From contig OX597833.1 in the NCBI GenBank assembly GCA_951406725.2, positions 13,826,001 to 13,890,000 of the forward strand: 64,000 nucleotides of DNA, in the 5' to 3' direction. Shown here one piece after another: positions 13,212 to 62,882 of this stretch. The notes beneath the pieces were generated by a model. The model had not been told where the DNA came from, did not search any database, and was given only the letters and a program-made list of their open reading frames with translations. The position numbers and the translations under genes were made by a program. Source of the stretch: Octopus vulgaris (taxonomy: Eukaryota). How positions within the stretch are numbered: position 1 is the first letter of the stretch; each line of letters begins with the position of its first letter.

Positions 13212-13727
13212 GTATGTATACATATATATGTATCAGCTGAAACATTGTTAATTAAAAAGATGAGAACAAATATCCATCAAACGTGAGCCTGGTGCAGCCT
13301 CTTGGCTTCCCAGTCCCCGATTGAACTGTCCAACCCATGCCAGCATGGAAAACGGACATTAAACGATGATGATGATGATGATGATATATATACATATATA
13401 GGTCATTCGAGGAAGTTAAGTCCTCATTGGGGATTATATAATCCAAGGTATTCCACTGGTTCAATCCATATCATATAACGGTAAAGTCATTTTGTATGTG
13501 TTTAGGATTATTTAAAATCATTAATATTGAAGAAAAAACAGGAAGAAAGTGGAGAATAAATGCATGAAATTACTAATTTATTTGCATATTGTAAAAACAT
13601 GGCATTTTTTTAAAAAAAACATTACAAATAAATCAGTAATTCCATTCATTCTCCACTTTCTTCTTGTTTCTCCATATATACATATCTATATATATCTATC
13701 TATATAAATATATATATATATATTATA

Positions 13728-26149: not shown

Positions 26150-27212
26150 CAGAACATAGCGATGGGAGAAATACCACAATGCATTTCATCCAGTGTGCCA
26201 ATGATTCTGCCAGCTCACAGGCACAAGGCCTGAAATTTTGGACGAAGGGGTGAGGTCAATTACATCGACCCCAGTGCATAACTGGTACTTAATCTACCAA
26301 CCCTGAAAGGATGAAAAGCAAAGTTGACCTTGGCGGAATTTGAACTCAGAACATAGCGATGGGAGAAAGGGGACGAAGGGGTTAGGTCAATTACATCGAC
26401 CCCAGTGCATAACTGGTACTTAATCTACCAACCCTGGAAGGATGAAAAGCAAAGTTGACCTCGGCGGAATTTGAACTCAGAACATAGCGATGGGAGAAAG
26501 GGGACGAAGGGGTTAGGTCAATTACATCGACCCAGTGCGTAACTGGTACTTAATCTACCAACCCTGGAAGGATGAAAGGCAAAATTGACCTTGGCAGGTG
26601 CCAGTCAGAACATAGCGATGGGAGAAAGGGGACGAAGGGGTTAGGTCAATTACATCGACCCAGTGCGTAACTGGTACTTAATCTACCAACCCTGGAAGGA
26701 TGAAAGGCTGAAATTGACCTTGGCGGAATTTGAACTCAGAACATAGCGATGGGAGAAAGGGGACGAAGGGGTTAGGTCAATTACATCGACCCCAGTGCAT
26801 AACTGGTACTTAATCTACCAACCCTGGAAGGATGAAAGGCAAAGTTGACCTTGGCGGAATTTGAACTCAGAACATAGCGATGGGAGAAAGGGGACGAAGG
26901 GGTTAGGTCAATTACATCGACCCAGTGCGTAACTGGTACTTAATCTACCAACCCTGGAAGGATGAAAAGCAAAGTTGACCTCGGTGGAATTTGAACTCAG
27001 AACATAGCGATGGGAGAAATACCGCAAAGCATTTCATCCTGTGTGCCAACGATTCTGCCAGCTCACAGGATGCAAGTCCTAAATGGCGAATTTGAACTCA
27101 GAACATAGCGATGGGAGAAAGGGGACGAAGGGGTTAGGTCAATTACATCGACCCCAGTGCGTAACTGGTACTTAATCTACCGACCCTGAAAGGATGAAAA
27201 GCAAAGTCGGCT
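26150..27212 (-). repeat. Tandem array of ~130-bp SINE-B-derived units (about 7 copies)
   Basis: GGACGAAGGGG recurs at 26241, 26371, 26502, 26630, 26761, 26892 and 27123. Confidence 0.92.
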
Positions 27213-32682: not shown

Positions 32683-32713
<31 letters not shown>

Positions 32714-33065
32714 CATATATACGATGGGCTTCTTTCAGTTTCCGTCTACCAAATCCACTCACAAGGCTTTGGTCGGCCCGAGGCTATAGTAGAAGACACT
32801 TGCCCAACATGCCACGCAGTGGGACTGAACCCGGAACCATGTGGTTGGTAAGCAAGCTACATACCACACAGCCACTCCTACACCTATATATATATATATA
32901 CGATGGGCTTCTTTCAGTTTCCGGCTACCAAAATCCACTCACAAGGCTTTGGTCGGCCCGAGGCTATAGTAGAAGACACTTGCCCAAGATGCCACGCAGT
33001 GGGACTGAACCCGGAACCATGTGGTTGGTAAGCAAGCTACTTACCACACAGCCACTCCTGCGCCT
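32467..33065 (-). mobile_element. SINE family A with a tandemly duplicated 5' half
   Basis: Two successive ~180-bp head modules followed by one body and tail. Confidence 0.88.
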
Positions 33066-33635
33066 ATGATGATGATGATGATGATGATAGCAGGATTTTG
33101 TATAGTTTTGTCCACCATTTTCACTCATGGAGGCTTCAGTCGGCCAGAGGCTACAGCAGAAAGAAGACATTTGTGCAATGTACCATGTAGCAGAATCAAA
33201 TACGGTGATTAGAAAATAAAATCTGTAACGACACAGCCATGTATACAGTTCTTAATTACAATAAAAAAAAAAAAGAAAAAAATTCTAATTATACTCTTGA
33301 GATTGTAAACAAAATACTTTTTCTATGTCACACAAAATATTTCTAAAAGCTTATAGAATACATATCCCCCCCAGCCCCCCACCCCACTATTATCGACATT
33401 AACACCATCGCCATCACCACTAACAACAACAGCAACAACCCCACCACTACCTCTACAATCACCTCCACCACCACCACCACCAACAACAACAACAGATCCC
33501 TTTCCACCACCATCCACTGCTGTCTTAAGGAATAAGCACAATGGGCAGGGGTGGGGGGAAGACCTCATGGGTTTAGGGCAGGGGTTGCAAAAGGGAGTCC
33601 GATGGACCTCCTAGGGGTTGGTGAGTAATTACAAG

Positions 33636-34240: not shown

Positions 34241-34809
34241 GATTGAGAGGTGTGACTCAGAGGATGCAGGTTGTCAAGCGCTTGCTTATAGAAATTGGCT
34301 GAACCTGGGGCAACGAGGTGATTTGAGACTGAAACTGACCAACATTCAGCCTGATGTCAATGCCTTGATTCAGGATCGCCATTATCATCCCTCACGTGGA
34401 GGCGCAATGGCCCAGTGGTTAGGGCAGCGGACTCGCGGTCGTAGGATCGCGGTTTCGATTCCCAGACCGGGCACTGTGAGTGCTTATTGAGCGTAAACAC
34501 CTAAAGCTTCACGAGGCTCCTGCAGGGGGTGGTGGTGAACCCTGCTGTACTCTTTCACCACGACTTTCTCTCACTCTTTCTTCCTGTTTCTGTTGTACCT
34601 GTATTTCAAGGGGCCAGTCTTGTCACACTCTGTGTCACACTGAATCTCCTCGAGAACTACGTTAAGGGTACACGTGTCTGTGGAGTGCTCAGCCACTTGC
34701 ATGTTAATTCCACGAGCAAGCTGTTCCGTTGATCGTATCAGCTGGGACCCTCATCGTCGTAACCGACGGAGTGCTAGAGAAGTGCTCCTAATATCATCCC
34801 TCACATTGA
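34241..34809 (+). pseudogene. hAT (Buster/Charlie-type) transposase C-terminal remnant, split by a SINE
   Basis: ...YRNWLNLGQRGDLRLKLTNIQPDVNALIQDRHYHPS|H* matches the family-terminal motif RNRL...DLRL.L+.I.P.+..L.....HPSH*; the final codons are restored by removing the SINE. Confidence 0.75.
34396..34791 (+). mobile_element. tRNA-headed SINE family D2, full length with a 13-bp TSD
   Basis: Same head as D1 but a different 3' half; TSD TATCATCCCTCAC at 34383-34395 and 34792-34804. Confidence 0.92.
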
Positions 34810-42494: not shown

Positions 42495-42780
42495 GTTGTG
42501 AATTGATCATGTGTTACAGTTCTATATTTAAGAGATGAGGAATTATGCACATTATTTACATTGTTTACATTTGATGGATATTTGTCCTCATTTTGTTTGT
42601 TGTTAACACGTTTCAGCTGATATACCCTCCAGCCTTCATCAGATGTCTTGGAGAAATTTCGAACCTGGGTTCTCATTCCTAAGGTATTTTACGATGTTAT
42701 TATTATTATATTATTATGGCGTAGTGGTTAAGAGAGCGGGCTACTAACCCCAAGATTCTGAGTTTGATTCCAGGCAGTGA

Positions 42781-42821
<41 letters not shown>

Positions 42822-43245
42822 TTTGTGTGTGTAATCTGGGAATGCATACAATGAGCTTCTCTGCCCTAGGTGTATGGAAAACACTAGGCGAGAAACGGAA
42901 GAAAATTTGAAGAAAGAAGGGTGGAGCACTTGCAGAAAACAGCACTGCTTGGAACCGCTGGAATAGTCCGGAAAGTGCTCGAAAAATAAGAGGTGTCACC
43001 TTTGTTCACTGATAGTGAACAGCTGGCACTGTAGTACATCTCCAGCGATAGAAGCTGTGCAAAAGCAATGATAATAGTAATGATAATAATAATAATAATA
43101 ACATCGAAAAATACCTTAGGATTGAGAACGCAGGTTCGAAATTTCCCCAAGACACCTGATGAAGGCTTGGAGGGTATATCAGCTGAAAGGTGTTAACAAC
43201 AAACAAGATGAACACAAATATCCGTCAAATGTAAATAATGTAATC
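42495..43245 (+). mobile_element. Composite element: inverted HHR-like module (42495-42710 -), tRNA-like head (42717-42785), (AAT)n, HHR-like module (43095-43245 +)
   Basis: ~160-bp inverted repeat; A-box TGGCGTAGTGG and B-box GAGTTTGATTCC; CTGATGA-A-GGCT...CAGCT-GAAA in both arms. Confidence 0.65.
42821..43068 (+). pseudogene. 3' end of an RLE-type non-LTR retrotransposon (R4/Dong-like) inside (TAA)n
   Basis: 42918-42989 translates RVEHLQKTALLGTAGIVRKVLEK*, the typical R4-clade C-terminal motif; flanked by TAA repeats on both sides. Confidence 0.75.
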
Positions 43246-43294
43246 ATGTATTATCTTGTGGTTTTGAAATTTTGATAATGTAATTGTTTATGTC

Positions 43295-44068
43295 TTTATT
43301 GGTCACAGGGGGCTAAACATAGAGAGGACAAACAAGGACAGACAAAGGGATTAAGTCGATTACATCGACCCAAATGTGTAACTGGTACTTATTTAATCAA
43401 CCCTGAAAGGATGAAAAGGCAAAGTCGACCTCAGCGAAATTTGAACTCAGAACGTAATGGCAGACGAAATACCTATTTCTTTACTACCCACAAGGGGCTA
43501 AACACAGAAGGGACAAACAAGGACAGACAAACGAATTAAGTTGATTACATCGACCTCAGTGCATAACTGGTACTTATTTAATCGACCCGAAAGCATGAAA
43601 GGCAAAGTCGACCTTGGCGAAATTTGAACTCATAACGTAACGGCAGACGAAATACCTATTTCTTTACTACCCACAGGGGGCTAAACATAGAGAGGACAAA
43701 CAAGGGCAGACAAAGGGATTAAGTCGATTACATCGACCCAAATGTGTAACTGGTACTTATTTAATCAACCCTGAAAGGATGAAAGGCAAAGTCGACCTCA
43801 GCGAAATTTGAACTCAGAACGTAATGGCAGACGAAATACCTATTTCTTTACTACCCACAAGGGGCTAAACACAGAAGGGACAAACAAGGACAGACAAACG
43901 AATTAAGTTGATTACATCGACCTCAGTGCATAACTGGTACTTATTTAATCGACCCCGAAAGCATGAAAGGCAAAGTCGACCTTGGCGAAATTTGAACTCA
44001 GAACGTAACGGCAGACGAAATACCGTTAAGCATTTCGCCCGGCGTGTTAATGTTTCTGCCAGCTCGCC
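43295..44068 (-). mobile_element. SINE family B tandem tetramer (ABAB)
   Basis: Four 183-184-bp units; units 1/3 and 2/4 share diagnostic variants. Confidence 0.92.
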
Positions 44069-49664: not shown

Positions 49665-49860
49665 CAGGAAGAGAGAGTGAGAGAAAGTTGGGGCGAAAGA
49701 GTACAACAGGTGTCGCCACCACCCCCTGCCGGAGCCTCGTGGATCTTTTAGATGTTTTCACTCAATAAACACACTCAATAAAAATTCCCGGTCTGGGAAT
49801 CGAAACCGTGATCCTCCGACCGTGAGTCCGCTGCCCTAACCACTGGGCCATTGCACCTCC
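49665..49860 (-). mobile_element. SINE family D 5' half
   Basis: Family D head. Confidence 0.8.
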
Positions 49861-62582: not shown

Positions 62583-62882
62583 ATCACGTGACCGACCAGG
62601 CTATCAGATGTTGCTACACATCGCTGGTCACAATGCGCTTCACATTGTTTTAGCCTTCAAATGATGCCACCCTGCTGGCTAAGCGAGCAGGCCAACAGAA
62701 AAAAGAGTGAGAGAAAGTTGTGGCAAAAAAGTACAACAGGGGTCGACACCACCCCCTGCCGGAGCCTCGTGGAGCTGTAGGTGTTTTCGCTCAATAAACA
62801 CTCACAACGCCCGATTGGGAATCGAAACCGCGATTTTACGACCGCGAGTCCGCTGCCCTAACCACTAGGCCATTGCGCCTTC
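62583..62882 (-). mobile_element. tRNA-headed SINE family D1, full length
   Basis: Matches 30899-31171. Confidence 0.88.

Follow-up and report, generated by a model that had tools for sequence, protein, structure and literature searches.

A tRNA-derived head in the terminal repeat of a Penelope/Poseidon-type retroelement of Octopus vulgaris, a candidate RNA polymerase III promoter

A composite repeat and its origin

The DNA considered here (the window) is a stretch of 64,000 nucleotides from Octopus vulgaris, positions 13,826,001–13,890,000 of contig OX597833.1. At 42495–43245 it carries a repeat in which a tRNA-like head, an (AAT)n linker and a hammerhead-type tail follow one another, with an inverted copy of the tail upstream. 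Which kind of element combines such parts? A first-pass annotation had read them as a possible short interspersed element (SINE), in which a tRNA head is fused to a borrowed tail and moved by the machinery of a Penelope-like element (PLE). All of these parts are recovered at nearly the same places when the sequence is re-examined. Judged from their genomic context, head, linker and tail are together the pseudo-long terminal repeat (pLTR) of a Penelope/Poseidon-type element with a predicted reverse transcriptase (RT) and a GIY-YIG-type endonuclease (EN). The head belongs to the pLTR of an autonomous element and not to a separate non-autonomous SINE, while the proposed identity of the tail, a Penelope pLTR with a minimal hammerhead, is borne out by a PLE with the same pLTR in the same genome.

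Head and tail as parts of a coding element

The structure is abundant. Exact 21-mers, counted across the 2.8-Gb genome, occur 7848 times for the tail, 3681 times for the head, 831 times just above the head and 97 times at the start of the open reading frame (ORF), while reversed-pattern control 21-mers have 0 matches, so that the arrangement is not due to chance. As a given 21-mer is matched exactly by about 40% of copies (32/78; 6/15), scaling the counts gives a rough estimate of ∼19,000 tail copies and ∼2,000 that reach the ORF end. Head and tail are linked genome-wide, as the first-pass annotation had supposed: they are joined in 28 of the 30 best head matches and, among 91 copies taken in order of position on contig C1 (out of the first 100 matches listed), in 78. 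Two near-identical copies with head and (AAT)n only, lacking the tail (L110 and L111, at G000:C1:7959607 and 7965059), lie 5.4 kb apart with shared flanks and are probably a local duplication.

Several head copies share upstream sequence whose translation is the endonuclease end of a PLE. When copies are collected by the endonuclease, 29 of 30 continue into the head and the tail is reached by 27 of 30; in a position-ordered sample (40 of 831 matches) the figures are 38/40 for both. The best 25 genomic matches to a related protein all belong to this family, and 24 of them reach the head (one ends earlier). The RT domain (PF00078) is detected at two loci (L091 and L093). The ORF had to be pieced together, since every copy seen is broken. 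Eighteen related proteins were found at 55–69% identity, a metagenome scan gave relatives at 30–55% only, and a search of the octopus genome returned this family only. A sequence search of the PDB with the element protein yielded distant RTs only, and an AlphaFold model of the endonuclease (mean predicted local distance difference test score 48) is too poor to use.

The endonuclease aligns by profile with that of another PLE of the same genome that is positive for Pfam GIY-YIG, and it matches the Y-x-I-x-C-x-C...Y-x-G-x-T...EH motif; the C-terminus thus resembles a GIY-YIG domain with the CCHH motif, although Pfam GIY-YIG (PF01541) has no direct match to it. The Zn-finger linker between RT and EN is absent from this family and present in a second PLE (L319). 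Since absence of this linker separates Penelope/Poseidon from Neptune and Nematis, as outlined in PMC8557442, it points to the Penelope/Poseidon clade. Partial-tandem pLTRs, an inverted 5'-truncated copy and a tail of 30–40 bp at one end, features of such elements, are all present.

The tail ends in either a long or a short form. The long end is continuous with the ORF in 60 of the 97 ORF-start matches fetched; an ATG in the tail is in frame in 6 of the 14 copies that keep it, and in 2 of the 14 the frame is open through the hammerhead into the ORF. The tail is therefore the start of the ORF, and the hammerhead lies within coding sequence. Read in order, the unit runs from the ORF stop through 36 nt to the A box and the B box, followed by (AAT)n, the ATG, the minimal hammerhead and one of the two 3' ends; in partial tandems the long end passes straight into the ORF. 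The spacer from stop to ATG is only 153 nt (36 nt, the head, (AAT)n and about 20 nt), and the head fills most of it.

Among the closest described systems is the anole Poseidon element PAc (Anolis carolinensis), which has a hammerhead in its coding sequence and two internal RT start sites shown in vitro (PMC11167929). The octopus element shares with it the RT and C-terminal GIY-YIG-type EN without a Zn-finger linker, a hammerhead where the ORF begins, a pair of 3' ends that differ by about 30 nt, partial tandems, 5'-truncated copies in inverted orientation and AT-rich targets. It differs in that the spacer of the octopus pLTR is a tRNA-derived unit with A and B boxes, and in that its ATG lies upstream of the ribozyme core, whereas the ATG of PAc is within the core.

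The head as a candidate promoter

The head is tRNA-derived and has both boxes of an RNA polymerase III (Pol III) promoter, as in tRNA SINEs. It aligns best to the tRNA-Arg genes of the genome (48/75 and 48/76 positions, 64%, z about 7 against shuffles); the comparison set was 25 distinct genes of 8 isotypes, drawn from the 30 best Rfam matches, so that not every isotype is sampled. The position of the 5' ends suggests a function for it. With the T of the A box set at 0, tRNA position 1 is 7 nt above the A box. Among the 91 position-ordered copies, 13 begin at 0 to +21, inside the head, and 42 at −15 to −1; 18 have fold-back or other junctions at a hairpin (a few are ambiguous), and 18 are native extensions. 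Thus, of 78 copies extending as far as the A box, 60 have their 5' end at tRNA position 1 or slightly above it, about 20-fold over background truncation, the rate of 5' ends being 9.8% per nt at the boundary versus 0.7% inside the head and 0.2–0.5% upstream. The whole-genome counts of 831 matches upstream and 3681 in the head agree with this boundary. Among ORF-start copies with an upstream pLTR that passes the A box, 4/6 also stop at −3 to −9.

A second peculiarity concerns runs of four T (T4). There are none in 2577 nt of the sense strand, in which 31 runs of four A occur. The probability of such an absence is 0.006 by base shuffling and 0.0005 at the pooled rate of twelve control ORF sets (40 T4 runs in 13,614 nt). 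In three further PLE families of the same genome, T4 runs occur at 1.5–4.6 per kb and a pattern search shows no pair of A and B boxes; two of the three have CCAAT, CRE or TATA-like motifs after the stop instead. No other promoter candidate was seen in the 153-nt spacer.

On balance, these features make it somewhat probable that the head acts as a Pol III promoter and thereby determines the 5' end of the RNA, the SINE-like copies being by-products of the same master. A bolder version, which we put forward only as a tentative possibility, is that the entire coding RNA would be made by Pol III from a captured tRNA promoter within the pLTR of an autonomous, protein-coding retrotransposon. Oligo-T terminators would then have been purged from the coding strand, translation of the uncapped RNA would begin at an ATG about 120 nt downstream of the A box, and internal priming on this RNA would give rise to tens of thousands of SINE-like copies.

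Several observations weigh against a functional Pol III head. Neither ARAGORN nor Rfam (the window; five loci, E up to 10) calls a tRNA on it. The 5' ends are scattered over 15 nt rather than placed at a single base, and the boundary coincides with a hairpin of −11 to −14.5 kcal/mol in four of five copies (−7.6 in one). Given the codon usage of the element itself, the probability of T4 absence per copy is only 0.03–0.33, and T4 is likewise scarce in ORFs of Dong-type long interspersed elements (LINEs), with 2 runs in 3132 nt. RNA reads were available from a related organism (three runs of one study, about 6% of each read, plus one contig set, all mRNA-type); they contain head, tail and ORF equally on both strands, there is no start or end peak, and 73–79% of the reads continue into unrelated sequence. 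They show that the family is shared with the related organism and is mostly read inside other transcripts, and say nothing on small Pol III RNA. Copies are about 6% diverged from the column majority, which suggests that the family is old, and therefore present-day transcription may be absent.

Alternative explanations

Part of this evidence would fit a head that is a mere passenger, a tRNA or SINE head captured long ago, within a 3' untranslated region (UTR) belonging to a PLE transcribed by Pol II or by read-through, where a hairpin at −30 to +12 stops the RT or snaps the cDNA back, so that short copies pile up. The hairpin does coincide with the boundary of 5' ends, fold-back junctions are common (89 distinct contexts), the main loose end in the RNA reads is at −14, short and long copies cannot be told apart, and heavy 5' truncation is usual for PLEs as described in PMC8557442. 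Yet windows of equal energy elsewhere (the hammerhead, −12.3; further ones at −470, −934 and −1254) are without a comparable stop, fold-backs containing native sequence from above the apex number 0 against the 89, and most of the 42 ends at −15 to −1 join unrelated or truncated inverted sequence and not a fold-back. The passenger would also leave the spacer without a promoter candidate and the lack of T4 runs unaccounted for, and this explanation appears rather unlikely. Another way to account for the boundary is that the head drives Pol III for short RNAs only, so that these behave like a SINE that is parasitic on the element it stems from, and that full copies supply the protein when Pol II reads through them. 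The same pile-up of 5' ends speaks for this possibility, as do the usual nature of Pol III transcripts (short and without a cap) and the Dong ORFs, which show that A-rich retroelement ORFs may be poor in T runs without any tRNA head. Autonomous LTR elements have likewise been argued to need Pol II (available text of PMC10886601). Against it, the absence of T4 spans the whole coding strand, which short RNAs would not constrain, and the boundary is common to ORF-carrying copies (4/6, a small number). This possibility, which we regard as open to doubt, overlaps with the preferred explanation and differs from it in what makes the mRNA; its likelihood is the share of that explanation in which the long RNA is not made by Pol III.

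The SINE of the first-pass annotation would be an independent tRNA SINE family with short masters of its own, mobilised in trans by the PLE, with the ORF-carrying copies as chimeras. Head-bearing short copies do outnumber ORF-carrying ones by about 4:1 and look like SINEs. However, practically all ORF copies have the head at the same junction, and a comparison of 96 short with 33 long copies reveals no diagnostic allele: 3 of about 250 columns differ at p<0.01, none of them a subfamily allele, and divergence is alike (5.7–6.6% in short, 6.6–7.3% in long copies). An independent lineage is largely refuted and very improbable; the short copies are more fittingly regarded as output of the same master than as a family apart. 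Where a tRNA SINE is non-autonomous, distinct from its partner and served by the RT of a LINE, these copies are identical to the pLTR of the PLE itself, which is also their partner; if Pol III starts them, they would nonetheless work like tRNA SINEs.

As a separate observation, the 20 nt above the apex of the hairpin (L246 region, all native copies) resemble the reverse complement of the first 20 nt of the head. This hints that head and ORF were first joined by an old fold-back event.

Insertion of paired copies

The proposal that Penelope machinery made the insertions is upheld by how the copies are paired. The long end is present in 141 of 314 distinct tail copies, and most of the remainder stop about 30 nt short of it. 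Head-to-head pairs number 102: a single long end occurs in 90 of them and no long end in 12, while 0 have two (p about 1e-15). For clean inverted pairs, 62/90 are flanked by at least 9 duplicated bases, mostly 10–14 bp, versus 2.6% of shuffled pairings. For a comparison of hairpin-loop orientation with the 3' end, only 27 contexts were usable. Each inverted pair would thus represent one event with two differently primed cDNAs, as expected from the pair of internal start sites of the anole RT.

By analogy with the anole Poseidon (PMC11167929), the protein would nick AT-rich DNA and begin cDNA synthesis from two internal positions near the beginning of the ORF. As the candidate promoter and the RT start sites are both contained in each pLTR, copying back to the 5' end of the RNA would produce a unit of ∼285 nt that resembles a tRNA SINE, and a separate SINE master would be unneeded. 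The small hairpin at the 5' end may help to join or fold back the two cDNAs. Cleavage by the ribozyme would not be needed for insertion, since an in-frame deletion that removes the cleavage triplet is carried by about one copy in six.

The hammerhead

In its sequence the family hammerhead matches the minimal PLE form, which is described as having a 5-bp helix I, an extra base between 9 and 10.1, a G10.1-C11.1 pair and a palindromic ACGT (sections of PMC4209133). CUGANGA, GAAA, an NUH triplet, helices I and II and the palindromic 15.2–16.2 are all present in the family majority, whereas the two window copies do not have the full set. In 170 copies drawn from position-ordered loci, the region from GAAA through the triplet to stem I has the 13-nt form in 138, the 3-nt deletion in 28 and other lengths in 4; the hammerhead is fully intact in 51. 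The supposition that the two window copies, both of which lack the cleavage triplet, are deletion variants is thereby confirmed, since most of the family has the triplet-length form. As far as the same source goes, minimal type I hammerheads of metazoan PLEs share all of these features with the octopus form, including the ACGT that replaces helix III and a GUU triplet; by sequence no structural difference is apparent, apart from the in-frame triplet deletion in about 1/6 of octopus copies.

Free-energy folding of an intact copy gives helices I and II as the monomer of minimum free energy, while the active dimer was not obtained. Rfam calls no hammerhead, either in the window at gathering threshold or in five loci and two short stretches with E up to 10; the hammerhead and tRNA assignments come from reading the motifs and from comparison with the aligned tRNA genes of the genome. 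The RNA reads of the related organism have no peak at the ribozyme site. A possible pile-up of 5' ends at the ribozyme cut was considered and rejected: 5/42 fall within 181–195, at scattered bases.

The insertion in the window

The window carries one insertion of this family, 42515–43242, which consists of an inverted pair with a 9-bp target-site duplication and nested R4/Dong fragments. The duplication, at 42506–42514 and 43243–43251 on the forward strand with one mismatch between the two copies, unites the two tail copies in a single event, and the pair obeys the family rule of one long and one short 3' end. The upstream member, on the reverse strand, is a 5'-truncated pLTR copy with the long 3' end (42515–42696). 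It is 92% identical to the forward tail, and it ends at 42515 and not at 42495 as first annotated. Its ORF start codon is in the region 42675–42677, and its triplet-less hammerhead has the core at 42636–42642 and the GAAA side at 42605–42614. A remnant of its (AAT)n, also in reverse orientation, occupies 42697–42715 at the junction with the forward copy.

On the forward strand, the tRNA-Arg-like head (42716–42784) begins 1–2 nt above its A box (42717–42727), and its B box (42762–42770) shows decay of a normally invariant C to T. The left part of the linker, (AAT)12, lies at 42785–42820 and the right part at 43067–43101. The forward pLTR tail, which is the 5' coding end of the Penelope ORF with the short 3' end, follows at 43102–43242. 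It has lost its start codon (43119–43126) and retains a minimal hammerhead remnant without the cleavage triplet (43151–43194; stem I 43151–43155, CTGATGA 43156–43162, GAAA 43185–43188); here, as in the inverted copy, a 3-nt deletion has removed the triplet. A separate and more diverged tail fragment of the family (77% identity, forward strand) starts at 13231, as had been reported, and runs to 13284 and not to 13250.

The linker is split by forward-strand 3' fragments of a LINE at 42821–43066, which we take from its motifs to be of the R4/Dong clade. A piece of 3' UTR that matches the LINE at L029 is followed by an ORF C-terminus with its own 3' UTR; the C-terminus (stop codon at about 42987–42989) matches that of the LINE at L301 with 61% over 18 aa. 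LINEs of this type sit repeatedly in the (AAT)n linker of the family (L029, L301, L091:7210-8001 and window 42821–43066). R4/Dong elements target (TAA)n, a preference that our literature search did not confirm.

Other repeats and Penelope families

A different tRNA-like repeat, whose A box is similar, has heads in the window at 34407–34433, 49825–49851 and 62847–62873. Tandem arrays of partial SINE-like repeats with units of 131–190 bp, presumably of the octopus OR/OK type, are located at 1614–2158, 26240–27019, 32706–33067 and 43304–44024. Elsewhere in the genome, seven tRNA-Cys-like genes are clustered in 3 kb (L260), two of them with altered anticodons.

The genome also contains a young Neptune-like PLE with intact ORFs of 781 aa at many loci (L319:745-3087 and L320; G000:C16:20836000-20840200 and C2:17354800-17359000). 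Its copies are 98% identical, and its 3' region has tandem CCAAT and TGACGT motifs and, by pattern, no CTGANGA-GAAA core. Two further Neptune-like families are represented by L321, L323 and L324, with a 766-bp perfect inverted repeat and a CCAAT/TATA-like 3' region in L321 and a 290-bp tandem 3' repeat in L323.

Relation to known elements and implications

The Penelope promoter of D. virilis is characterised in PMC2377424 as internal, TATA-less and LINE-like. SMalpha and Sjalpha of Schistosoma are likewise Pol III-type SINE-like repeats with a hammerhead downstream of the promoter; they differ in being non-coding, often tandem and equipped with a canonical active ribozyme, and the available text of PMC6765202 and PMC8490949 names no autonomous partner that shares their head. 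The TRIMp3 elements (Cassandra, Helenus, Ajax) have a Pol III promoter derived from a small RNA in their terminal repeat, but are non-autonomous LTR elements whose LTRs are not common to an autonomous partner, so far as described in PMC10886601, whereas the octopus coding element has the head itself. Animal retrozymes (10.64898/2026.07.22.740005; PMC7229834) and Chlamys MRC1 (PMC8557442) are short pLTR-related units moved by PLE machinery, and retrozymes are argued in the first two sources to descend from pLTRs. A tRNA head or Pol III promoter is not mentioned in the accessible parts of these accounts, and non-LTR retrozymes form head-to-tail arrays with a hammerhead per unit, while the octopus copies are dispersed solos and inverted pairs. 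With tRNA SINEs, as defined in the available part of PMC3531059, the short copies share a size below 700 bp, a tRNA head with A and B boxes and a tail from a partner element; they differ in that the partner is a PLE and not a LINE, in the lack of a separate lineage and in insertion as inverted pairs.

No PLE pLTR with a tRNA head came up in the literature search; the sequences of Repbase, Dfam and SINEBase lay outside it, so the family may be deposited under another name. A Pol III-type head of this kind was found described for non-coding elements only. The 2026 repeat annotation of octopus contains numerous unclassified SINEs and Penelope families, its available text leaving hammerheads unmentioned, and some repeats annotated as unclassified SINEs may in fact be PLE pLTRs.

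The rule of one long end in 90 of 102 pairs, together with the target duplications, provides genomic support for the model of two start sites shown in vitro for the anole element. In the sources available, the mobile elements described as having Pol III promoters are non-coding passengers (SINEs, Cassandra, Helenus, Ajax, SMalpha), and coding retroelements are generally held to rely on Pol II or on read-through from the host; in the octopus element the promoter slot of a coding Penelope is occupied by a tRNA head. If it is functional, it would offer a direct path from an autonomous element to a SINE-like family without a separate master, and a model for a PLE origin of Pol III hammerhead repeats such as SMalpha, and the translation of a Pol III RNA would become testable in a natural element.
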